From a virus (Duplodnaviria; Heunggongvirae; Uroviricota; Caudoviricetes): a stretch of DNA of 45,042 nt. Positions 11,077-44,267 of this stretch are shown here, in pieces. Both the position numbers and the translations under genes were made by a program. The notes under the pieces are model-generated. The model made no database searches. It was not told the origin of the DNA and saw only the letters and a list, made by a program, of their open reading frames with translations. Within the stretch, counting starts at the first letter, position 1. Each line of letters starts with the position of its first letter. The stretch covers positions 1 to 45,042 of IMG/VR virus record IMGVR_UViG_2563366951_000002. One strand, written 5' to 3'.

Positions 11077-11904
11077 ATGGGGTATGTCTCTATACACCGC
11101 CAGTTTATGGACAGCAGGCTCTATAAGGACTCTCAGGCAGTACATCTTTGGCTTCACTTAATCCTCAAGGCTAATCACGAATCTACTGTCGTCAATACGG
11201 ATATCGGTCCGATAACTGTTGATCGCGGTCAGATGATAACTGGACGCCCGTCGCTGGTCAGAGAAACATTCATCCCCGACAACAAAGTTCGGAGCTTATT
11301 ACGGACTTTTGAGTCGAAAGGGATGCTTAATATTTGCTCGATGGGGAAGAAATTTAGCCTGTTTACAATCGTTAAATATGACGATTTTCAGGCAAAAAAT
11401 TGTCCAACGGTTGTCCAACGGTTGTCCATCGCAAACACCAGTAATGGCGCGGCTCTCAGCGGAGATTGTCCAACGGTTGTCCAACGGTTGTCCATAAACA
11501 ATAATATAAATAATATCTCTAATACTGACGTATTAGAGAGTACCGCAGCAGACAAAAAGTCTGACAAGAAAAAACCTTCCGTTAGCTGTCAGGATGTTGT
11601 CGATGCTTACCACGAAATCCTTCCTGAAGCGCCAAAAATCCGCGCACTGAATGACAAGCGTAAAAACCAGATCCGAACGTTCTGGCGCAAAGCCGGAGTG
11701 ATAACCCGCCAGCTCGACGGGCATGGGTTCACGATGCAGGACTGGAGAAATTATTTGAGCTACGTAGGCGAAAATTGCCGATGGATGTTCGAAGAGCGCC
11801 CAAACCATCAGCGCGGAACCGTCTGGCACAAAAAGGGATTTGATTTCCTGCTTAACGATAATACCTACCTGAAAGTTCGTGAGGGTGAACACGATGACCG
11901 ATAA
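11077..11904 (+). CDS. Replication initiator, O-like, with origin iterons inside the gene
   Basis: ATG at 11077 with AGGAGG 8 nt upstream (track ORF starts at 11014); iteron repeats and an AT-rich block lie within the coding sequence as in lambda O; stop overlaps the helicase start. Confidence 0.7.
   Translation: MGYVSIHRQFMDSRLYKDSQAVHLWLHLILKANHESTVVNTDIGPITVDRGQMITGRPSLVRETFIPDNKVRSLLRTFESKGMLNICSMGKKFSLFTIVKYDDFQAKNCPTVVQRLSIANTSNGAALSGDCPTVVQRLSINNNINNISNTDVLESTAADKKSDKKKPSVSCQDVVDAYHEILPEAPKIRALNDKRKNQIRTFWRKAGVITRQLDGHGFTMQDWRNYLSYVGENCRWMFEERPNHQRGTVWHKKGFDFLLNDNTYLKVREGEHDDR
11400..11496. repeat. Origin iterons: two clusters of three 11-bp direct repeats
   Basis: TTGTCCAACGG at 11400, 11411, 11422 (third copy degenerate) and again at 11466, 11477, 11488; followed by AT-rich aacaataatataaataatatctctaatact. 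Confidence 0.75.
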
Positions 11905-14359
11905 TTTTTATGCGCCGCCCCATAGCATCGAGGCAGAGCAGGCGGTGATTGGTGGATTGCTTCTGGATGATGACAGCAGTGAGCGCGTCCAGAAAGTTCT
12001 GGCGATGCTGAAGCCTGATTCATTTTACTGCCGACCACACAAAATCCTTTTCGAAGAAATAACCAGAATGCACCGTGAGCAAAAGCCAGTAGATGGCCTG
12101 ACGCTTTTCGATGAACTGGAGCGTAAATCGTTAACGGCGTCTGTTGGCGGTTTTGCTTATATCACTGAGATCGCAAAGAACACGCCAAGCGCCGCAAACA
12201 TCGTTGCCTATGCAATGCAGGTTCGCGAAACCGCAATGGAACGCTACGCCATCAACCGCATGACTGAAGCGACGGAATTGCTCTATTCCCGCAACGGAAT
12301 GACTGCGACGCAGAAGTACGAAGCTATTCAGGCGATTTTCACGCAACTGACAGACCATGCAAAAACCGGATCGCGTCGCGGCCTTCGCTCATTTGGTGAG
12401 GTTATGGAAGACTGGGTTAGCGACCTTGAGAAACGATTTGACCCATCAGGCGAACAACGGGGAATGAGCACAGGGATCCCATCGCTGGACAGGATGCTGT
12501 CACCGAAAGGTCTGGTGAAAGGCTCTCTGTTTGTCATTGGCGCTCGCCCTAAGATGGGGAAAGCGCAACCGCTTAATTCACGCATTTTGCTTGCTGATGG
12601 TTCATGGACAACATTTCGTGACGTATGTGTTGGAGATTCCCTAGCATCAGTGGATGGACAACCATCATTCGTGTCTGGAGTTTTTCCTCAAGGGGAGCGA
12701 GATATTTACCGAGTTACGTTCTCTGACGGAAGAACCGTTGATTGCGCGGATGATCATTTGTGGGAGATTCATAGTAACCGTATTACCGGTGGCGTTGATG
12801 TTGTAGACACCTGCCGCCTACGGGACATGATGGAATGCGTTCGCTATCAAAGCCGCATTCATGTTCCTGGTATTAGCGGTGACTTCGGATTGCCTGTTGA
12901 TTTAGGGATTAGCCCATGGCTGTTAGGTGCGTTACTTGGCGATGGAAATCTTGCAGGTACGCCACGAATCAGCATGACGGAACCATACATCATTGAGCGA
13001 GTAAGATCTGAAGTGGGTGACGATATTGAAGTCAGGCATGTTTCTGGCTGCGATTACTCCCTATCTCACAAGTTTAGCCGCAAATTATCTCTTACGCGGG
13101 TTATGCAACGGCTTGGTATCTACGGCCGGATGTCAGAGATTAAAATTATCCCGGATATTATTTTTTCTGCTGATAAGCAAACTCGTATTGATGTTCTATG
13201 CGGATTACTTGAAACCGATGGTTGGGTTGAAGGAAATAATGCCCTGCGCTTTAGCTCGGCAAGCAAGTTCCTGTCAGATGGTGTAAAGCGGCTGGTGCAT
13301 TCTCTTGGTGGCGTGTGTCGTATGACAACCAAACAGGAGCCGAAATTCAGTTATAAGGGAGAAATGCGCAAAGGTATGGATGCCCATATTTGCGCAATCA
13401 GGTTGCCTGATGAGGTTCTATCACACATAAAATCTCCACGCCTGAAGCAAAAATTCACTGCAAAACGCATCAAAACAAGTGCGCCTGTTATCACGTCGGT
13501 TGAGTATATTGGACGTGAAGAGTGCATTTGCATCATGGTATCCCACGAGAGACATTTGTATGCAACTGACGGATACATTCTAACTCACAACACCACGCTA
13601 TACAGCCAGATGGCAATCAACTGCGCAGTGCATGAGAAAAAGCCCGCTCTGATGTTCAGCCTTGAAATGCCAGGTGACCAGATACTGGAAAAACTGGTGG
13701 GACAGAAGTCAGGTGTTAACCCGAATATTTTTTACCTTCCGGCGACAAATGACGCTGATGACAGCTATCAGGGTGATTACGATGGTGACTTCAACAGGGC
13801 GATCGAAACAGCCAATCGCTTGAGTGAAATCGACCTGCTTTACATCGACGACACGCCGGGATTATCTCTGGCTCAAATCGTCAGCGAAAGCCGTCGAATC
13901 AAGCGAGAAAAAGGATGTGTTGGCATGATTCTGGTCGATTACCTGACACTAATGACTGCTGAGAAGGCCGATCGCAACGACCTTGCTTACGGCATGATCA
14001 CCAAAGGATTGAAGAACCTTGCCAAAGAGCTTGATTGCGTTGTTGTGCTTCTGACACAGCTTAACCGCGCACTGGAAAGCCGAACCAATAAACGCCCATT
14101 ACCAAGTGACTCACGAGATACAGGGCAGATTGAACAGGATTGCGATTATTGGGTTGGGATCCATCGGGAAGGTGCTTTTGATGACAGCGTTCCTCCTGGT
14201 GAAACCGAACTAATCCTTCGTCTCAATCGTCATGGCAATACCGGCACGGTGTATTGCATTCAGGCAAATGGCGCTATTTATGACACAGACCAACAGTCTG
14301 CTGAAATGCGCCGACGTGAACGCGAGGAACCGCAGTCCAAGAAGAAAGGAGGATTCTGA
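11894..14359 (+). CDS. DnaB-family replicative helicase interrupted by an in-frame intein
   Basis: ATG at 11894 (track ORF starts at GTG 11879); N-terminal DnaB-like domain; Walker A GARPKMGK, then 343-aa insert, then TTLYSQMAIN...SLEMP...LVDYL...SDSRDTGQIEQDCD helicase motifs. Confidence 0.8.
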   Translation: MTDNFYAPPHSIEAEQAVIGGLLLDDDSSERVQKVLAMLKPDSFYCRPHKILFEEITRMHREQKPVDGLTLFDELERKSLTASVGGFAYITEIAKNTPSAANIVAYAMQVRETAMERYAINRMTEATELLYSRNGMTATQKYEAIQAIFTQLTDHAKTGSRRGLRSFGEVMEDWVSDLEKRFDPSGEQRGMSTGIPSLDRMLSPKGLVKGSLFVIGARPKMGKAQPLNSRILLADGSWTTFRDVCVGDSLASVDGQPSFVSGVFPQGERDIYRVTFSDGRTVDCADDHLWEIHSNRITGGVDVVDTCRLRDMMECVRYQSRIHVPGISGDFGLPVDLGISPWLLGALLGDGNLAGTPRISMTEPYIIERVRSEVGDDIEVRHVSGCDYSLSHKFSRKLSLTRVMQRLGIYGRMSEIKIIPDIIFSADKQTRIDVLCGLLETDGWVEGNNALRFSSASKFLSDGVKRLVHSLGGVCRMTTKQEPKFSYKGEMRKGMDAHICAIRLPDEVLSHIKSPRLKQKFTAKRIKTSAPVITSVEYIGREECICIMVSHERHLYATDGYILTHNTTLYSQMAINCAVHEKKPALMFSLEMPGDQILEKLVGQKSGVNPNIFYLPATNDADDSYQGDYDGDFNRAIETANRLSEIDLLYIDDTPGLSLAQIVSESRRIKREKGCVGMILVDYLTLMTAEKADRNDLAYGMITKGLKNLAKELDCVVVLLTQLNRALESRTNKRPLPSDSRDTGQIEQDCDYWVGIHREGAFDDSVPPGETELILRLNRHGNTGTVYCIQANGAIYDTDQQSAEMRRREREEPQSKKKGGF
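12563..13591 (+). mobile_element. Intein (343 aa) with LAGLIDADG homing-endonuclease domain, inserted in the helicase P-loop
   Basis: Insert begins AQPLNSRILLADG and ends YILTHN, followed by Thr; two LAGLIDADG motifs (LLGALLGDGNL, LCGLLETDGW); removing it restores GARPKMGK-TTLYSQ. Confidence 0.75.
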
Positions 14360-14648: not shown

Positions 14649-15095
14649 ATGAAGCAAATATACATGCTTCGCAACGAAGCAATCAGAAACAACGCCATAG
14701 ACGCAATACTCTCACTTCCGATCGACGACAAGTCACCTCACGAAGTCCACGTTAGAGAACCCAAACGCAGCAAAGCGCAGAATGACCGTATGTGGCCGAT
14801 GCTGAACGATGTTTCGCGTCAGGTGCTATGGCATGGTCAACGGCTGGCGCCGGAAGACTGGAAAGACCTGTTCACTGCCCTGTGGCTTAAGACCAAAAAA
14901 ATGGAGCAAAGAAGTGCGCCTGGTATCGACGGTGGCGTTGTTATGCTTGGCGTGCGTACCAGCAAAATGCGAAAGGCCAGCATGACTGAGCTTATCGAAA
15001 TCATGTTCTGGTTCGGCTCAGAGCGCAACGTGCGGTGGAGTGATGACTCCCGGCGAGAGTATGAATGGTCACAACGAAAAGGGAAGGCTGCATGA
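14649..15095 (+). CDS. ninB: NinB recombination protein (148 aa)
   Basis: Translation ...WPMLNDVSRQVLWHGQRLAPEDWKDLFTA...MFWFGSERNVRWSD resembles lambda NinB as recalled. Confidence 0.75.
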   Translation: MKQIYMLRNEAIRNNAIDAILSLPIDDKSPHEVHVREPKRSKAQNDRMWPMLNDVSRQVLWHGQRLAPEDWKDLFTALWLKTKKMEQRSAPGIDGGVVMLGVRTSKMRKASMTELIEIMFWFGSERNVRWSDDSRREYEWSQRKGKAA

Positions 15096-15619
15096 CTATC
15101 AAATCAAATACGCCAGCACACGACAAGGACTGCTGGCAAACGCCGCTTTGGCTTTTTGATGCGCTGGATATTGAGTTTGGATTCTGGCTGGATTCGGCAG
15201 CGAGCGACAAAAATGCTCTGTGCGCTCACTGGCTAACTGAGGCCGACGACGCGCTCAATTCTGAGTGGGTAAGCCACGGTGCAATCTGGAATAACCCACC
15301 GTACAGCAATATCAGGCCGTGGGTGGAAAAAGCCGCTGAGCAGTGCATACAACAGCGACAGACGGTAGTTATGCTTGTACCAGAGGATATGTCAGTCGGA
15401 TGGTTCAGCAAGGCTCTGGAGAGCGTTGACGAAGTTCGCATCATCACTGATGGACGGATTAATTTTATCGAACCATCGACGGGGCTGGAGAAGAAGGGAA
15501 ACAGCAAAGGCTCAATGCTGCTGATTTGGCGACCGTTCATCAGTCCTCGACGGATGTTTACTACCGTATCCAAAGCGGCATTGATGGCGATCGGGCAGGG
15601 CGTCAGGAGGGCGGCATGA
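15092..15619 (+). CDS. Phage-type DNA N6-adenine methyltransferase (Dam family)
   Basis: ATG at 15092 overlapping ninB stop (ATGA); catalytic NPPY motif ([10 protein letters not shown]); track ORF starts at 15065. Confidence 0.7.
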
Positions 15620-15792
15620 GACGACAGCGACGAAGTATCACCGACATAATCTGCGAAAACTGCAAATACCTTCCAACGAAACGCTCCAGAAATAAACGCA
15701 AGCCAATCCCAAAAGAATCTGACGTAAAAACCTTCAACTACACGGCTCACCTGTGGGATATCAGGTGGCTAAGACATCGTGCGAGGAAATGA
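15616..15792 (+). CDS. ninE: NinE-like protein (58 aa)
   Basis: ATG at 15616 with AGGAGG upstream; [32 protein letters not shown]... resembles lambda NinE as recalled. Confidence 0.65.
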
Positions 15793-16196
15793 CAATGCTT
15801 TTAATTCAACCTGGATTTGGCCTTAGCATCAAAAAAGGGCACATGTTTGGCGAGAAAGAGTCTCAACGAAAAATGGTGTCTATCCAGTTGCCATTTATCA
15901 GTATTTTATGGCTAAACAGGGAGGCAACAAATTATTGGTATACATGCGCCAGAGCAGCATTTAACGACCCTGAGTGGTTTGTAGAAAACCACCACGCAGT
16001 TCGTCAGGCAAAGAGAAAGGCCAACATGACATACATGAAGGCGTATCGAAAAGCATGGAAAGAACACCGCGATCGATACCAGCAAGACATGGAAAAGCTT
16101 GAATCAGAAAACATGGAATTAAGACGAAAGCTTGGTGAAGCAAAACGAGACATTGATGCTTACAAGCGACTTTTTAATGGTGAAAGCCATGCTTAG
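15789..16196 (+). CDS. Hypothetical nin-region protein (135 aa)
   Basis: ATG at 15789 overlapping ninE stop; track ORF begins at 15753; C-terminal coiled-coil-like segment. Confidence 0.45.
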
Positions 16197-16365
16197 CCCA
16201 TCCCAATCCCTTCAATACCAGAAAGAAAGCGTCGAGCGAGCTTTAACGTGCGCTAATTGCGGTCAAAAGCTGCATGTGCTGGAAGTTCACGTGTGCTCCG
16301 ATTGCTGCGCAGAACTGATGAGCGATCCGAATAGCTCAATGTACGAGGAAGAAGACGATGAGTGA
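16189..16365 (+). CDS. ninF: NinF-like protein (58 aa)
   Basis: Internal ATG at 16189; [44 protein letters not shown]... resembles lambda NinF as recalled. Confidence 0.65.
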   Translation: MLSPSQSLQYQKESVERALTCANCGQKLHVLEVHVCSDCCAELMSDPNSSMYEEEDDE

Positions 16366-16867
16366 TGTTAAAGAAAAAGATATCCCCGGCTTTGAGGGTA
16401 TATATAAAGTAACTGAAAATGGAGACATCATTTCATGCCGTAAATCAAAAAAATTATCTCATGGCATTAAACCAGGAGGATATGCATTTGTCGGTCTGTA
16501 TCCAGGTGGCGGGAAAAGACCATCATATAAAATGGTTCACAGAATTGTTGCAGAAGTATTTATTGATAACCCAGATGGCAAACCGGAAGTTAATCACAAG
16601 GATGGAAATAAACTTAATAATAAAGTTGAAAATCTTGAGTGGGTAACGCGAACAGAAAATGCGAAACATGGATTTGATTCCGGATTGCTTGTTCATGGGT
16701 TTAATCATCACTTCTGCAAACTAACGCCAGAACAAGTGAAATCAATATATAAATCAAAAGGCAAATACAGAGATATAGCCAAAGAATTTGGTGTTTGTGC
16801 GCAGACAGTGTGCAACATAAAAAACAAATCAGCGTACCGACGTTTTTTGGAGGGGATTGATGTTTAG
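16358..16867 (+). CDS. Free-standing HNH-family endonuclease (169 aa)
   Basis: ORF from track; HNH-like core (EVNHKDGNKLNNKVENLEWVTRTENAKHG) with N-terminal GIYKVTENGDI segment; region is visibly AT-rich relative to flanks. Confidence 0.7.
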   Translation: MSDVKEKDIPGFEGIYKVTENGDIISCRKSKKLSHGIKPGGYAFVGLYPGGGKRPSYKMVHRIVAEVFIDNPDGKPEVNHKDGNKLNNKVENLEWVTRTENAKHGFDSGLLVHGFNHHFCKLTPEQVKSIYKSKGKYRDIAKEFGVCAQTVCNIKNKSAYRRFLEGIDV

Positions 16868-17135
16868 AAGCAAAAAATGGCTTCAGACAGTCAGGGATAT
16901 TGAATTTTGCGTTCTTTGCGGAAGATACGGAGTTCAGGCCGCTCACAGAAATGAAGGGAAGGGGGTTGGGATTAAAGTAGATGATTGCCTTACTGCTGCG
17001 CTATGTGTTGATTGTCATTCAAGAATTGATAATGGGAGAGATATGAGCAGGGAAGAGCGAAGGGCTGAAATGGATCGGGCCATTGTGCTTACCCTTAAAA
17101 AATTGGTTAACAATGGGAGGGTGTTTGTCCAATGA
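16860..17135 (+). CDS. Small Cys/His-rich nin-region protein (DUF1364/YbcO-like?)
   Basis: ATG at 16860 (track ORF starts at TTG 16857); CxxC ... C..C.H pattern (CVLCGRY, CVDCHSR). Confidence 0.5.
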   Translation: MFRSKKWLQTVRDIEFCVLCGRYGVQAAHRNEGKGVGIKVDDCLTAALCVDCHSRIDNGRDMSREERRAEMDRAIVLTLKKLVNNGRVFVQ

Positions 17136-17494
17136 ACGAATATCAGTTTGTGCTTCCGTACCCGCCGTCGGTGAACACCTACTGGCGAAGAAGGGAAAGC
17201 CAATACTACATCAGCGATAAAGGCCAGAAATACCGAAAAGACGTTCAGCAAATCATTCGCCAACTCAAGTTAGACATTTTCACCAAATCACGACTCCGCA
17301 TCAAAGTCATCGCAGACGTTCCAGATTCCCGCCGCCGCGACCTCGACAACATCCTGAAAGGTTTACTCGACTCCCTTATCCACGCCGGATTTGCGGAAGA
17401 CGACGAGCAATTCGATGACATTCGCGTAATTCGTGGTGTGAAAGTACCAGGCGGACGGCTTGGAATAAAAATCACCGAACTGGAGAACGTATGA
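17132..17494 (+). CDS. rusA: RusA Holliday-junction resolvase (120 aa)
   Basis: MNEYQFVLPYPPSVNTYWRRR...DSRRRDLDNILKGLLDSLIHAGF resembles E. coli RusA (...[25 protein letters not shown]). Confidence 0.8.
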   Translation: MNEYQFVLPYPPSVNTYWRRRESQYYISDKGQKYRKDVQQIIRQLKLDIFTKSRLRIKVIADVPDSRRRDLDNILKGLLDSLIHAGFAEDDEQFDDIRVIRGVKVPGGRLGIKITELENV

Positions 17495-17679
17495 ACGCCA
17501 CAATTCAAACGATACCAGAGCTTCTTATCCAGACACGAGGCAATCAGATCGAAGTGGCAAGGATGCTTTCCTGCGCAAGAGGAACAGTGCTCAAGTACAA
17601 CCGAGACAGTAAAGGCGAGCGTCACGTAATAGTTAACGGCGTCCTGATGGTCAAACAGGGAAAAAGGGGAAGGCCATGA
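17491..17679 (+). CDS. ninH: NinH-like protein (62 aa)
   Basis: ...GNQIEVARMLSCARGTVLKYNRD... resembles lambda NinH HTH region as recalled. Confidence 0.6.
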   Translation: MNATIQTIPELLIQTRGNQIEVARMLSCARGTVLKYNRDSKGERHVIVNGVLMVKQGKRGRP

Positions 17680-18299
17680 GACTCGAAAGCGTAGCTAAAT
17701 TTCATTCGCCAAAAAGCCCGATGATGAGCGACTCACCACGGGCCACGGCTTCTGACTCTCTTTCCGGTACTGATGTGATGGCTGCTATGGGGATGGCACA
17801 ATCACAGGCCGGATTCGGGATGGCTGCATTTTGCGGTAAGCACGAACTCAGCCAGAACGACAAACAAAAGGCTATCAACTATCTGATGAAATTTGCACAC
17901 AAGGTATCGGGGAAATACCGTGGCGTGGCAAAGCTTGAAGGAAATACTAAGGCAAAGGTACTGCAAGTGCTCGCAACATTCGCTTATGCGGATTATTGCC
18001 GTAGTGCCGCGACGCCGGGGGCAAGATGCAGAGATTGCCACGGTACAGGCCGTGCGGTTGATATTGCCAAAACAGAGCTGTGGGGGAGAGTTGTCGAGAA
18101 AGAGTGCGGAAGATGCAAAGGCGTCGGCTATTCAAGGATGCCAGCAAGCGCAGCATATCGCGCTGTGACGATGCTAATCCCAAACCTTACCCAACCCACC
18201 TGGTCACGCACTGTTAAGCCGCTGTATGACGCTCTGGTGGTGCAATGCCACAAAGAAGAGTCAATCGCAGACAACATTTTGAATGCGGTCACACGTTAG
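17676..18299 (+). CDS. Q: Late-gene antitermination protein Q, lambda type (207 aa)
   Basis: MRLESVAKFHSPKSPMMSDSPRATASDS...; recognised as lambda Q; followed by a lambda-like pR' promoter. Confidence 0.9.
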   Translation: MRLESVAKFHSPKSPMMSDSPRATASDSLSGTDVMAAMGMAQSQAGFGMAAFCGKHELSQNDKQKAINYLMKFAHKVSGKYRGVAKLEGNTKAKVLQVLATFAYADYCRSAATPGARCRDCHGTGRAVDIAKTELWGRVVEKECGRCKGVGYSRMPASAAYRAVTMLIPNLTQPTWSRTVKPLYDALVVQCHKEESIADNILNAVTR

Positions 18300-18341
18300 C
18301 AGCATGATTGCCACGGATGGCAACATATTAACGGCATGATA

Positions 18342-18370
18342 TTGACTTATTGAATAAAATTGGGTAAATT
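18342..18370 (+). promoter_or_regulatory. Late promoter pR' (with qut region)
   Basis: TTGACTTATTGAATAAAATTGGGTAAATT: -35 TTGACT, 17-nt spacer, -10 TAAATT, matching lambda pR' as recalled. Confidence 0.75.
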
Positions 18371-18405
18371 TGACTCAACGATGGATAAATGCACTCGTTA
18401 AATAA

Positions 18406-18437
18406 AGCCCTGAGTTAATAGCTCGGGGCTTTTTTGT
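18406..18437 (+). terminator. tR'-like intrinsic terminator (end of a short 6S-like late leader RNA)
   Basis: GC-rich stem (18407-18414 pairs with 18422-18429) followed by TTTTTTG; downstream tatctgcacaacag matches the lambda tR' flank. Confidence 0.65.
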
Positions 18438-18690
18438 ATCTGCACAACAGATAATTGCATTGGGGTGACCGGTTAATCCCGTTACGCTAACCGAAACAGG
18501 CGCAGTGCAATTATCGTTGTGGTGAATGCGCAGGCTGATGCGCTAACTTATCAGCTAGATGGTGAGGTAAAGGCTCACCATGGCGACGACGGGTAGTTCA
18601 TTTACATGCCGGAAAACACAGCACCGGTCACCACACACCAAATACCTACCAGGACCATAAGAGCAAAAGCTCAACGCACTACCCTCTATT

Positions 18691-21300: not shown

Positions 21301-21855
21301 ATGGCAAAGCTCACAGACAAACAAGAGCTGTTTGCCCGTGAGTACCTGAAAGATTTAAACGCCACTCAGGCAGCTATCAGGGCGGGTTACAGCGAGAAAA
21401 CTGCTCGCGCCACTGGTAGCGAGAACCTGTCAAAACCTGACATAGCAGATCGCATTGCTGAGCTAAAGGCTGAACGCAATGAAGAGGTAGGTATAGACGC
21501 TGCCTATGTATTGCGACGGCTGACTGAAATCGATCAGATGGACGTGCTTGACATTCTGCTTGCCAATGGCGAACTGAAGCCGATTAAAGACTGGCCTAAG
21601 GTGTGGCGTACAACGCTATCAGGAATGGATGTCGTCGAGATGGCATCAGCAGATAGTGCTGCTCTCCTGAAGAAAATCAAATGGCCTGATAAGGTTAAAA
21701 ACCTTGAGTTGCTCGGGCGTCATGTTTCTGTTCAGGCGTTTAAAGACAATGTCAAAAATGAAGTGACTGGTGCTGACGGAGGACCAGTCAGAACAGAAAT
21801 TACCAACTTAACGCCGGAGCAGGCTGCAGAAGCGTATAAAAAAATGATGGGCTAA
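21301..21855 (+). CDS. Terminase small subunit (184 aa)
   Basis: [49 protein letters not shown]... typical terminase small-subunit N-terminal DNA-binding region; immediately upstream of the large subunit. Confidence 0.75.
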
Positions 21856-41273: not shown

Positions 41274-42211
41274 TGGCAACAAATAACTTCAAAGCGTTCG
41301 CGCTTGATCCTAACGCTAATGTTACGCCACAAGCTGACTGGGAGGCGCTACCGACACTACTATCAGGATTTACTTCAGGTAAGGCATCAAGTGCGCAGGT
41401 GAATAAAGCGCTTAGACAGTCGTTGTTTATTGCTTCTACCTTGGCTGAATTTGTATCAACGACACTGAATACGGATATCCTTGATGATGGTGATGTCACT
41501 GGGTTCGTGAGTAAATTGACATCTGCATTACAATTAAATTCTCCAGGGCGTCTCATTAATATTCAGACTATCACTACTTCAGGAACGTACACAAAAACAC
41601 CTGGTGCGAAGCATGCTTTAATTCGTGCAGTAGGAGGGGGGGCAGGTGGTGGCGGGGCTCCTGCCACTTCATCAACGACTCAGTCAACAGCAAAAGGTGG
41701 GGAATCTGGCGCTTATATTGAAGCGTATGTTGATCTAAGTTCTGTGACTTCTTTATCTGCAATTATTGGTGCTGGTGGAGTTGGAGCCATTGCTGGCAGT
41801 AATAGCGGGACATCTGGCGGAACGACTTCCTTAGGGAGTCTAATTTCATGTCCAGGTGGTGAGCCTGGAATTGGTGGGAATACCAGCGCAGCAAGTTTTG
41901 TATCATCTGACAGGGCATCAAATAAAGCGCCAATGTCAACAGGCATGATTTTGGTTTCAACGCCAACATCGTTACCAAACCTTGGCCGCGTAGCAAATCC
42001 ATCAGCTCCTACTGTTGGTGGTACCGGTGGATCTAATCCTTTAGGGATGGGGGGGGCTGCTGGAGCTGCGGTACCAGGAACACCTACATTACCGACAAAT
42101 GGAAGTGGCTATGGTAGTGGGGGAGGGGGAGGCGTATCAGTTGGAGGGATGTCTGCAATGGGCGGTGGTAATGGTGCGCCTGGAATTATTATCATCATGG
42201 AGTATGCGTAA
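41273..42211 (+). CDS. Tail fibre protein with glycine-rich C-terminal region (312 aa)
   Basis: ATG at 41273 (TAATG overlap with upstream stop; track ORF starts 41255); C-terminal Gly-rich repeats (GGGAGGGGAP, GGTGGSNPLGMGGAAGAA); followed by a fibre assembly gene. Confidence 0.65.
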   Translation: MATNNFKAFALDPNANVTPQADWEALPTLLSGFTSGKASSAQVNKALRQSLFIASTLAEFVSTTLNTDILDDGDVTGFVSKLTSALQLNSPGRLINIQTITTSGTYTKTPGAKHALIRAVGGGAGGGGAPATSSTTQSTAKGGESGAYIEAYVDLSSVTSLSAIIGAGGVGAIAGSNSGTSGGTTSLGSLISCPGGEPGIGGNTSAASFVSSDRASNKAPMSTGMILVSTPTSLPNLGRVANPSAPTVGGTGGSNPLGMGGAAGAAVPGTPTLPTNGSGYGSGGGGGVSVGGMSAMGGGNGAPGIIIIMEYA

Positions 42212-42603
42212 TGAAATATGCAGTCATTGAAAACGGGAATGTTATAAACATTATTGAACTAGATGATTCAGAAATGCTTCCTGGAACCGAGTTAGAAATT
42301 ATACCTGAAGGTGAAGTTGTAGATATAGGCTATAAGTGGGTTGGAACGACATTTGAACCTCCACCAAAGCCAGATCTGACTGACACAGAACGCCTGGAAT
42401 TAATTACGATTCAGAGAGATGAGCGGATTTCAGCTGCTTTAAACTATGTATCATTTAACAACCTAAATGCAAAATTGTTGCTAAATATGCTTTCTGATGA
42501 GGAAAAAAACCTTTACGCTTCAATAATTAAATACGTTGATACACTTAGGGGTATGCAGTTCAATTCTTTATCTGAAATAAAGTGGCCTGCTCTCCCGTAC
42601 TAG
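42211..42603 (+). CDS. Tail fibre assembly protein (Tfa-like, 130 aa)
   Basis: MKYAVIENGNVINIIELDD... and position after the fibre gene with TAATG coupling. Confidence 0.65.
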   Translation: MKYAVIENGNVINIIELDDSEMLPGTELEIIPEGEVVDIGYKWVGTTFEPPPKPDLTDTERLELITIQRDERISAALNYVSFNNLNAKLLLNMLSDEEKNLYASIIKYVDTLRGMQFNSLSEIKWPALPY

Positions 42604-42608
42604 TTTAA

Positions 42609-42634
42609 CCCGCGACCTATCGTGAGGTCGCGGT
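42609..42634. terminator. Hairpin between convergent tfa and acyltransferase genes
   Basis: Stem CCCGCGACC/GGTCGCGG with 8-nt loop; no clean U-tract on either strand. Confidence 0.35.
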
Positions 42635-42642
42635 GTTATAGA

Positions 42643-43686
42643 TTACCCTGTAAATATGCTCATGATTATCTTTGAAGCGCGTTTACTTTCAAGGTGGCTA
42701 GATATCATTTTCACTAATTTTACTTGTGAATACACAACTAATAATGCAAGTGTATAAGTTACAATAAATGTTATCACAAAGTTTAAACTGAGTTTGTGGC
42801 ACATTAATATGAATAAAATGTGCCACAGATAAAGCCATATTGAGTTTTCTGAAGTAAATTTGACAAGTGTCCATGCAACAGTATTTTTTAAGCGAGCCAC
42901 AATGGCATCAGCATATAAATAAACCAGTGTGCTAACGAATACAGCATAGGATAAATAGTAAATCCCCGGGGGGTATTTATCAATTTGTGTTGGGATAAAG
43001 GAATTATCTACAAAGTAAAAATCAATAACTAAGAAAAAGAACAGGGACGCAGAACAAATAATCAACAGTAAAATTTGCTTTTTGTCTAAACTCATTAGTT
43101 TATAGCCGATTAAAAATACAAACATATAAGGTATAGTGTTTGCAATATAGGAGCCGATGAGAACCATTTTGTTCATTTCGTCAAGCTCTTTATAGAAACT
43201 TTTGAATTGACTATTAATAATTACGGTGAGAGCAAAAAAAGATAGTAGATACAACATTCTTGCATTGAGTAATTTCTTTGGTAAGAATATCGCAATTGTC
43301 GAAATTATGAAAAAAAGCCTTATAACCCAAACATATCCCAATCCGCTAGATAACGTAAATGAGGTAATTATATGCCCTTGTGGATAAGTGAAGTTTTTAA
43401 TATTAAATGCTAAGGCAAGACATTCATTTATTACGAAGAAAAAACCAAAGAAAATCCATGTAGGAAGAACTAATCGACGAAAGCGCGAGGCGATATAACC
43501 TAGTTTGTCTTTATGTCTTTCCTCTGTCACATAAAATGACATTCCCATGACCATAAACATTAAAGGTACATCGAAGTTACGCAGTTGAGCTAGCCATAAA
43601 GGAGGCTGGACATGGGCTAGAATGATTAGAGAAAGCCCGAGAAATCTTAAAAAATCTATTTTATCAATACGCATGACTTCGTCCAT
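42643..43686 (-). CDS. Acyltransferase-3 family integral membrane protein (O-antigen acetylase-like, 347 aa)
   Basis: ORF from track; about ten hydrophobic segments; N-terminal FLRFLGLSLIILAHV typical of acyltransferase_3; very AT-rich codon usage unlike neighbours; opposite strand to the tail genes, next to attR. Confidence 0.7.
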   Translation of the reverse strand: MDEVMRIDKIDFLRFLGLSLIILAHVQPPLWLAQLRNFDVPLMFMVMGMSFYVTEERHKDKLGYIASRFRRLVLPTWIFFGFFFVINECLALAFNIKNFTYPQGHIITSFTLSSGLGYVWVIRLFFIISTIAIFLPKKLLNARMLYLLSFFALTVIINSQFKSFYKELDEMNKMVLIGSYIANTIPYMFVFLIGYKLMSLDKKQILLLIICSASLFFFLVIDFYFVDNSFIPTQIDKYPPGIYYLSYAVFVSTLVYLYADAIVARLKNTVAWTLVKFTSENSIWLYLWHILFILMCHKLSLNFVITFIVTYTLALLVVYSQVKLVKMISSHLESKRASKIIMSIFTG

Positions 43687-44267
43687 TAGATTTTATAGAT
43701 CAACGATTATACATTAGTATTGATCGGCTATGACACCATTGCTTATAGGTATGCTCTCTGTTGTATGAGTACAGCTCAGGAGCTTCGCCTTGGTTTGTTA
43801 TAGCTTACGGTGCCGATTTACGATGTCGGAGTGCCGACACCGTATCGCAAATTCCCGGTAGGCAGTGGTTAGACACGATGCAGGCCGCCGGTGATTGTTG
43901 AGACTGGCAGCCTGCATAATTTACAGCCCAACCTGGCGAACTGTCGGGAACTCAGATACCAGCCACATATCGGCTTCTTCAAACATATCCTCGTTTCTGG
44001 TCAAGTGAGGAGTGAAAATTCATGTGCCATTTTTGTGTCACACAAGGTGAAGCATCTAACATTGTCTTGCATCATGTGCCATTAAGTTTCTTATAGTGAA
44101 TGCGGCAATGTGTATGTAAAACAGCTAGTTAAATGTGATTCTACTAATTCGTAATGCGAAGGTCATGTGACGTTACCGTCTATCCAGTACGCCCACCATT
44201 GCATCATTTCTCTGCGCTTATCGAGATACTGAGCATGGTTGTAAATTCAGCAAACGACGTAATGTGT

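Follow-up and report, generated by a model that had tools for sequence, protein, structure and literature searches.

Much is known about free-standing HNH homing endonucleases from work on lytic phages, among them T4, SPO1 and the Skunaviruses. To our knowledge, temperate lambdoid phages have received little attention in this respect, and the mosaicism of lambdoid genomes is usually explained by passive recombination. In this work, we analysed a free-standing HNH endonuclease gene (hereafter HNH, for the gene and its product) located in the nin region of a temperate enterobacterial lambdoid prophage contained in the IMG/VR record IMGVR_UViG_2563366951_000002. The whole stretch of DNA analysed, 45,042 nucleotides (nt) in length, is called the window. 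This locus provides a concrete case for asking whether an endonuclease actively drives the exchange of nin modules, and no earlier description of it was found in the searchable literature on NUMOD4 or free-standing HNH proteins in lambdoid phages.

The closest described enzyme is I-HmuI, the endonuclease of the DNA polymerase intron of SPO1 (Protein Data Bank (PDB) entry 1U3E; relatives I-HmuII, I-BasI, and I-TwoI). Enzymes of this type nick DNA close to their own insertion site (PMC3428280). The HNH of the window has the same three-part architecture (169 versus 174 amino acids (aa)), shares 29% identity with I-HmuI over 165 aligned positions, and carries the same catalytic His and Asn of the HNH/N motif. 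Unlike I-HmuI, which belongs to a group I intron of a lytic Bacillus phage, it stands free between open reading frames (ORFs) of a temperate prophage and has Asn79 in place of Asp74.

With regard to its arrangement, the locus also resembles the free-standing seg/mob endonucleases of T4. The MobE gene is promoterless, its product nicks the neighbouring nrdB gene of phage T2, and flanking sequence is co-converted (PMC2790892). HNH is likewise promoterless and lies beside its probable target gene, and a whole second gene, here named D, travels along with it. In the Mob proteins, however, the HNH is N-terminal and is joined to another kind of C-terminal domain. Moreover, nrdB stays where it is in the case of MobE, which depends on polymorphisms, whereas at the present locus ybcO has apparently been replaced by a paralogue whose first ~25 residues are unrelated. 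That paralogue is D, a remote homologue of HK97 gp66/Escherichia coli YbcO (DUF1364, PF07102) at the same position before rusA; the homology concerns this neighbour and not HNH itself. A third precedent is gene 31 of the Salmonella phage epsilon34, in which the reading frame of the eaE N-terminus continues into an HNH homing endonuclease (PMC2629481). Gene 31 of this P22-like temperate phage resembles those relatives of HNH that begin with the first 15 codons of ybcO, because in both cases the first codons of a resident gene precede an HNH. It differs in lying in the ea region and in belonging to another HNH lineage, and the HNH of the window has no such leader.

HNH is a predicted I-HmuI-type endonuclease

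The ORF list of the window contains an intact ORF of 169 aa with an ATG start (coordinates in Table 1), and the same gene limits are given by PGAP and by the GenBank records of phages Louie and Dewey. The original prediction, made from the DNA letters alone, had placed an HNH-family endonuclease gene of this length exactly there, and the profile searches that it had proposed agreed with it: Pfam NUMOD4 matched residues 7-48 (29.2 bits; cut-off 23.4), Pfam HNH_3 matched residues 58-102 (42.2 bits; cut-off 24.8), and PHROGs assigned the protein to phrog_59, "HNH endonuclease" (E 8e-51). PADLOC returned "HEase" models only, and NCBIfam gave no match for HNH, D or the gp66 proteins. The HNH clade had its sole match inside the window at 16322-16864.

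In a PDB sequence search with phmmer, I-HmuI was the top solved relative (1U3E; E 9e-19, HNH residues 6-121). An AlphaFold2 (AF2) model of HNH built on 37 relatives reached a mean pLDDT (predicted local distance difference test) of 92.6, and in a Foldseek comparison of this model with the PDB the only significant match was again 1U3E (165 columns, E 5e-10, probability 1.00), in an alignment that takes in the C-terminal helix-turn-helix (HTH) of I-HmuI, which was beyond the reach of the sequence search. The N-terminal part aligns with I-HmuI residues 3-55 and is modelled as five beta strands (aa 6-59), as in the NUMOD4 beta-sheet module of the I-HmuI-like family. The helices of the C-terminal part lie within aa 124-166, and both the model and the Foldseek alignment show a C-terminal HTH on a helical linker in an extended monomer.

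Alignment to 1U3E matched His80, Asn88, and Asn101 of HNH to His75, Asn83, and Asn96 of I-HmuI, so that the beta-beta-alpha-metal HNH/N motif of this family (HNH_3), with its catalytic His and metal-binding Asn, is present; the original prediction was to be abandoned if such residues failed to appear on alignment. Among 37 clade members, Asn79, His80, and Asn101 were invariant and Asn88 nearly so. Asn79 occupies the position of I-HmuI Asp74, but its invariance in the clade marks it as a feature of the lineage and not as a lesion, and judging by this conservation the substitution is probably tolerated. The HNH core was the most conserved domain, with a mean pairwise identity of 70%, followed by the HTH with 60%, whose FGVCAQTVCNIK helix shows almost no variation across the clade. 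That these two domains are the best conserved suggests that both catalysis and a single DNA specificity have been under selection.

From the model, the protein is expected to be a monomeric I-HmuI-type endonuclease consisting of a NUMOD4 beta-sheet, an HNH/N active site, and a C-terminal HTH, and by analogy with I-HmuI it is expected to act as a site- and strand-specific nickase. As judged from its sequence, the gene is a real and intact I-HmuI-like HNH endonuclease gene and, as selfish genes of phages go, an ordinary one. Public records already give it the right name (PGAP: "NUMOD4 motif-containing HNH endonuclease"), and its family is very large and well known.

The GC content of HNH is 36.7% (27.6% at third codon positions, GC3), compared with 49.8% for the window, which bears out the AT-rich composition claimed for it. 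Among 510-nt windows of the stretch (standard deviation of GC content 5.7%), just 2.7% were as low as the HNH gene, and the remaining ones that were equally low all fell in an acyltransferase block at 42-44 kb. In every context examined, HNH had a lower GC content than its partner gene. The further claim that the gene was recently acquired is doubtful, because HNH and D have diverged together, to ~60% identity, in prophages of E. coli, Salmonella, Klebsiella, and Citrobacter.

HNH is rare and varies between presence and absence at a fixed site

Of 5426 complete E. coli genomes, 34 contained HNH DNA at 99-100% identity, in each case within the nin region of a prophage; of the 425 phage records having this nin region, two contained it, namely Louie and Dewey. 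These two are P22-like phages (PMC12243541). The rusA gene of the window was detected in 965 and its ninF allele in 1693 of the same 5426 genomes; HNH thus occurs in ~3.5% of the nin regions with this rusA, and more than 96% of related nin regions are without it. Such a presence/absence polymorphism at a fixed site is one of the features by which homing genes are recognized. The finding that would have told against the original prediction, a gene universally present with no empty alleles, was not made: the gene is rare and alleles without it are plentiful.

With a threshold of E<=1e-10, 1721 phage records matched the HNH protein, and the nearest non-identical relatives in deposited phages were just ~40% identical. 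A graded series at 50-75% identity was present in a large protein collection, from E. coli, Salmonella, Klebsiella aerogenes, Citrobacter koseri, Pasteurellaceae, and metagenomes. A scan of genome contigs with the HNH protein, one genome per species, retrieved only relatives below 50% identity, which were used as controls (see below).

HNH is part of a two-gene unit within the nin operon

In order to delimit the inserted unit, the window was compared by blastn with ECP1, mEp043, and mEp235. Homology stopped at 16366, one base past the ninF stop, and resumed at 17132, the rusA start, so that the differing unit (16367-17131) comprises HNH and D. The flanks are common to these phages, the ninF of the window being 96-98% identical to that of ECP1, mEp043, and mEp235, and its rusA 96-98% identical to that of the same three phages and HK97. 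In ECP1, mEp043, and mEp235, the interval holds instead a 70- or 89-aa ORF and a 96-aa gp66-type ybcO. In HK97 it contains roi and gp66. Viewed as a slot for alternative cassettes, the stretch between ninF and rusA has roi in HK97, the 70-aa ORF in mEp043, the 89-aa ORF in ECP1 and mEp235, and nothing in SEN22 and RM8082. The original prediction had described an HNH gene inserted in the nin block; the gene is indeed free-standing and absent from most such blocks, but what has been inserted, in place of the small ORF and the gp66-type ybcO, is HNH together with D, and not HNH alone.

D matched phrog_131 (E 3e-30) and, weakly, Pfam YbcO and DUF968. When compared by hhalign with gp66-type YbcO, it aligned with a probability of 95% (E 3e-8) over aa 25-88 only, and its N-terminal quarter, the first ~25 residues, is unrelated to YbcO. 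A PDB sequence search with a D-type profile returned nothing meaningful. What the original prediction, with its label "DUF1364-like", had missed is that D is a divergent paralogue and not the resident HK97-type ybcO allele. We also considered D as the truncated rest of a ybcO gene split by the insertion, and rejected this because D is full length, stands alone in many phages, and cannot be aligned to YbcO over its first ~25 residues.

Both ends of HNH are interlocked with the neighbouring genes. A Shine-Dalgarno (SD) sequence, GAGGA (16345-16349), precedes the HNH ATG (16358), and the start of HNH overlaps the end of ninF by 8 nt (ninF stop 16363-16365). Correspondingly, the last 20 nt of HNH hold the SD sequence GGAGGGG (16849-16855) and the ATG (16860) of D, upstream of the HNH stop (16865-16867). 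A promoter and terminator scan gave nothing above shuffled expectation, and hence no autonomous expression signal for HNH; an Rfam search of 15000-18500 (E<=1) gave no intron and no other RNA; and a repeat search of 15900-17400 found chance-level short repeats only, none of which brackets 16367-16868 or 16367-17131. Together, the lack of intron, flanking repeat, and promoter and the start-stop overlaps with SD sequences indicate a promoterless, translationally coupled, free-standing gene. On this reading of the DNA, HNH is coupled in translation to ninF upstream and to D downstream, within the nin operon. An intron- or intein-encoded endonuclease was discarded as an explanation, given that no Rfam intron was found and that the flanking ninF and D are complete, and so was a transposable element or insertion sequence, given that no terminal inverted repeats or target-site duplication surround the insert.

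The D allele of the window was found in 37 E. coli genomes, 34 with HNH and three without it (RM8082, DETEC-S565, and NCTC9104). In the latter three, D is 97-98.5% identical and directly follows a different ninF allele, and homology to the window begins at 16869, two bases past the HNH stop.

HNH relatives are linked to YbcO-family genes

The contigs of eight HNH relatives with 52-73% identity were examined for neighbouring genes, and in all eight HNH directly abutted a gene of the YbcO superfamily. A D-type gene lay immediately 3′ of HNH in the loci from E. coli (L052-54, L064), Salmonella (L055-57), K. aerogenes (L058), and Citrobacter (L059-60), and in L063, whereas a true PF07102 YbcO gene lay downstream of HNH in a metagenomic phage (L062) and upstream of it in Aggregatibacter (L061). 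The other neighbours varied, with ninF, small ORFs, a 658-aa cytosine methylase (Dcm-type) or DUF1367 on the upstream side and rusA or three different antiterminator (Q) families on the far side. As a control, 195 loci with distant NUMOD4/HNH_3 homologues (<50% identity; from genomes, IMG/VR, and metagenomes) were scanned with hidden Markov models of D and YbcO; no clear adjacent D or YbcO was detected in them, with a single weak adjacent match and one YbcO 2 kb away.

The dependence is one-sided. Among the best 80 D-type loci of IMG/VR, HNH adjoined D in 19 loci with a D identity of 98-99%, in one of which it persisted only as a deletion remnant, and in one locus with a D identity of 80%; all 60 loci with D at 75-79% identity had no adjacent HNH. 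When D proteins were arranged in a neighbour-joining tree, at least four or five HNH-plus lineages emerged, scattered among HNH-less alleles. A dependence of HNH on D/YbcO that is not returned is the pattern expected of a site-specific parasite of the locus, and the YbcO-family gene beside HNH is probably its homing location.

Recombination joints within ybcO and decay of HNH

The N-terminal sequence of gp66-type YbcO, MANLRKEARGRECQV, also stands at the beginning of many clade members. In the E. coli locus L052, the first 45 nt of HNH are 91% identical to nt 1-45 of ybcO from ECP1, mEp043, and mEp235, and the similarity ends there; in this lineage, which is 72% identical, ybcO codons 1-15 run in frame into HNH. 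Another, independent joint, which involves the lineage of the window itself, was found in an IMG/VR locus (L161) and in the complete genome of E. coli QML220601. Both are HK97-like through ninF, roi, and nt 1-29 of ybcO and then switch, via a microhomology of a few bases, to the sequence of the window from 16343 onward (97.6% identity), a stretch that consists of 14 nt of the ninF tail, HNH, D, rusA, and ninH. As read from these sequences, L161 and QML220601 represent a recombinant between window-type and HK97-type nin regions, with one homologous crossover and one illegitimate crossover at the ybcO 5′ end. The two illegitimate joints, one at nt 29 and the other at nt 45 and so 16 nt from each other, are in keeping with a break introduced at this place by the endonuclease.

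HNH is also subject to decay. In two further loci (L151 and L232) and in E. coli AH19B041, aa 55-164 have been deleted in frame, which joins codon 54 to the last five codons and leaves a 59-aa remnant, annotated as "NUMOD4 domain-containing protein". The whole catalytic core and the HTH are gone, and the SD sequence and ATG serving D are kept. The existence of these in-frame derivatives indicates that HNH is dispensable for the prophage. Conversely, E. coli ET729 (L309 1793-2067) has a D gene annotated as frameshifted and an intact HNH upstream of it. Such decay of HNH is in line with the cycle of invasion, decay, and loss through which homing genes pass, and it speaks against HNH being essential.

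Proposed mechanism and alternative explanations

Taken with the one-sided linkage, the conserved active site, and the joints within ybcO, we consider it rather probable that HNH is a free-standing homing-type selfish endonuclease gene. That its specific target is the 5′ end of ybcO is a tentative proposal, with the odds against it. Cleavage, target site, and biased inheritance are proposed here by analogy with I-HmuI and MobE. According to this scheme, HNH would be translated from the nin transcript once the phage has infected a cell or been induced, and would bind a long asymmetric site through the NUMOD4 sheet and the HTH. In a cell with an HNH-plus and an HNH-less lambdoid genome, the latter would be nicked or cut at the ybcO/D locus, most likely within the first 30-60 nt of a gp66-type ybcO, and the break would be repaired from the HNH-plus genome, with ninF or the ybcO 5′ end as left flank and rusA as right flank. 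HNH and the linked D would thereby be copied in and ybcO replaced. D is unlike ybcO in exactly this region and lacks an equivalent of the ybcO 5′ end; provided that the target is located there, D would therefore escape being cut. The element would in this way cut the resident ybcO at its 5′ end and exchange it for an uncuttable paralogue with an unrelated 5′ end, an idea that we regard as slightly more doubtful than the target site itself. If true, the element would destroy and functionally replace its target, with no need of an intron, an intein or point polymorphisms. The constant partnership of HNH with YbcO-family genes, the joints within ybcO, and the idea of a target-replacing cassette are modest additions to what is known. 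The HNH-plus phages Louie and Dewey exist as isolates that infect E. coli K-12, and a candidate target gene is offered by HK97-type phages; otherwise, the practical value is small and nothing points to a new enzyme class.

Several observations weigh against homing at ybcO. Asn79 stands in place of I-HmuI Asp74 at a putative metal-ligand position, which Shen et al. in 2004 are said to have described as a metal ligand. The comparison of the ninF-rusA interval suggested in the original prediction did yield HNH-less alleles, but none with both flanks identical to those of the window: no strictly isogenic empty site, with A-type ninF abutting this D, was present in the 37 E. coli genomes or in IMG/VR. 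In a junction alignment of 25 loci, no consistent "immunity" substitutions distinguished the D 5′ ends of HNH-plus from those of HNH-less loci. The roughly parallel divergence of HNH and D fits a long vertical linkage of the two genes as well as it fits repeated homing, and in Aggregatibacter HNH sits 3′ of an intact YbcO gene, so that YbcO is not always destroyed. With respect to the joints, two of them 16 nt apart in a gene of ~300 nt amount to a coincidence of about 1 in 10, and the in-frame ybcO leader may go back to one old event. Finally, cassette borders at gene boundaries are also expected from ordinary lambdoid mosaicism.

This last point leads to the alternative that HNH and D form an ordinary mosaic cassette, in which a nuclease, active or decaying, has been spread by homologous recombination between the nin flanks with no drive by the endonuclease. 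The coincidence of borders and gene boundaries, the several alternatives found in the ninF-to-rusA slot (roi, the 70-aa ORF, the 89-aa ORF or nothing), which is clearly a place where cassettes concentrate, and the low frequency of HNH, as a drive element might be commoner than ~3.5%, all speak for it. Nevertheless, it leaves unexplained that the clade is always found beside a YbcO-family gene in unrelated backgrounds, unlike the 195 control loci, that illegitimate joints occurred twice within the first 45 nt of ybcO, and that catalytic and DNA-recognition residues are invariant, and we therefore hold it to be unlikely, though still to be reckoned with. Instead of, or besides, being a selfish gene, HNH may serve as a weapon in competition, a nickase that damages co-infecting or resident rival lambdoid genomes at ybcO. 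Among I-HmuI-like nickases there are precedents: next to I-HmuII, NixI of PLE is used against a rival phage (PMC9410903) and a similar role in competition is indicated for the intron endonuclease of phage PhiPA3 (PMC11620839). Targets would be at hand on induction, since E. coli genomes often contain several prophages with this rusA, in up to 4 places. Such a role would share with homing the premise of cleavage, taken by analogy, and is compatible with it; as there is no evidence of a fitness effect and the deletion derivative persists in prophages, we rate it as improbable.

Two further explanations assign HNH a function in the phage cycle. One of them is a cooperative nuclease module of HNH and D, for instance an accessory of nin recombination or repair beside NinB and RusA. 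The strict adjacency, the translational coupling, and the roughly parallel divergence of the two genes would be in line with it, as would the neighbourhood of NinB and RusA, which are recombination proteins. However, D/YbcO mostly occurs without HNH (in 60 of the best 80 IMG/VR loci and in all gp66-type phages), HNH can be deleted in frame with D kept, one genome has D frameshifted and HNH intact, and the gene order is reversed in Aggregatibacter; consequently, this explanation appears very improbable. The other had been raised in the original prediction, which suggested that such endonucleases may assist packaging; HNH would then aid the terminase in cutting concatemers, like HK97 gp74. Terminase-associated HNH proteins are indicated to be common in phages (PMC3592412). 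Those of the gp74 type are small zinc-binding proteins encoded beside cos and terminase. HNH, in contrast, has an I-HmuI-type fold with NUMOD4 and HTH and not the zinc-ribbon HNH of the cos-side type, and is separated by 4.4 kb from the small terminase gene downstream of it (21301-21855), with Q and the lysis genes in between; the terminase is of the Terminase_2 type with no HNH adjoining. P22-like phages package by a headful mechanism, and the identical gene is found in the P22-like Louie and Dewey. Furthermore, more than 96% of related nin regions manage without HNH and the gene survives as a catalytically dead deletion, which taken together leave a packaging role next to no likelihood.

Organization of the nin region

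The features of the region are listed in Table 1. The neighbouring genes named in the original prediction were confirmed by Pfam, but the phrog_1511 ORF between ninE and ninF had been left out. This gene (15795-16196) is present in Louie and ECP1 and absent from Dewey, mEp043, and mEp235, and thus represents another presence/absence cassette.

Table 1. Positions of HNH, its domains and junctions, and the surrounding nin-region genes in the window.
Feature	Position	Strand	Evidence
ninB	14649-15095		Pfam
dam	15065-15619		Pfam
ninE	15616-15792		Pfam
phrog_1511 ORF, 133 aa, function not assigned, between ninE and ninF	~15795-16196		PHROG
ninF, A-type allele, left homology arm common to many HNH-less phages	16189-16365	+	Pfam NinF
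Upstream junction	16345-16365	+	Sequence; blastn breakpoints versus ECP1, mEp043, mEp235
HNH endonuclease gene, free-standing, I-HmuI-like architecture	16358-16867	+	ORF, Pfam, PDB phmmer, AF2, Foldseek
N-terminal beta-sheet DNA-binding region (NUMOD4), aa 7-57	16376-16528	+	Pfam, AF2 strands, 1U3E alignment
HNH/N catalytic core, aa 58-105	16529-16672	+	1U3E alignment, clade conservation
C-terminal HTH DNA-binding domain, aa 121-160	16718-16837	+	AF2 helices, Foldseek, conservation
Downstream junction	16849-16868	+	Sequence; blastn versus L006-L008; junction alignment of 25 loci
D, 91-aa co-travelling gene, divergent YbcO-superfamily (His-Me finger/treble-clef) small nuclease	16860-17135	+	phrog_131, hhalign
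rusA, right homology arm common to HNH-less phages	17132-17494	+	Pfam RusA
ninH	17491-17679		Pfam
Q	17676-18299		Pfam

Other HNH genes and homing-type elements

The annotation of these small genes in public databases deserves attention. RefSeq gives the name "HNH endonuclease" to 96-aa gp66/YbcO (DUF1364) proteins (L003, L004, L005, and L225), and in Louie and Dewey both the I-HmuI-like gene and D bear this name, so that homing endonucleases of lambdoid phages may be miscounted.

Further HNH genes were observed in the nin/Q regions of the lambdoid loci examined. In L151 (939-1486), L158 (1398-1945), and L232 (339-886), a different endonuclease gene of ~548 bp splits ninF at the equivalent of window position 16295/16305. 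It encodes an HNH_3-like motif and an AP2-like C-terminus, and two of the three loci also hold the deleted HNH remnant. Other, unrelated HNH genes lie in L053 (1996-2544) and L308 (3322-3834), and in L170, L193, L216, and L217 unrelated HNH genes are located ~1.7-2.3 kb downstream of D. It would seem that the nin/Q region is a hot spot for HNH genes in general.

The prophage of the window carries a second homing-type element in its DnaB helicase gene (826 aa, 11879-14359). An intein-like insert of 343 aa (~12563-13591) interrupts the Walker A loop (GARPKMGK|...|TTLYSQ) and contains a LAGLIDADG motif (LLGALLGDG) with a weak match to Pfam LAGLIDADG_3. The insert starts with Ala, not with Cys or Ser, and ends with His-Asn, followed by Thr. 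Lastly, the low-GC block near the right end of the prophage (30-39%, 42100-44250) includes an Acyl_transf_3 gene (42643-43686, − strand), which is probably an O-antigen-modifying moron.

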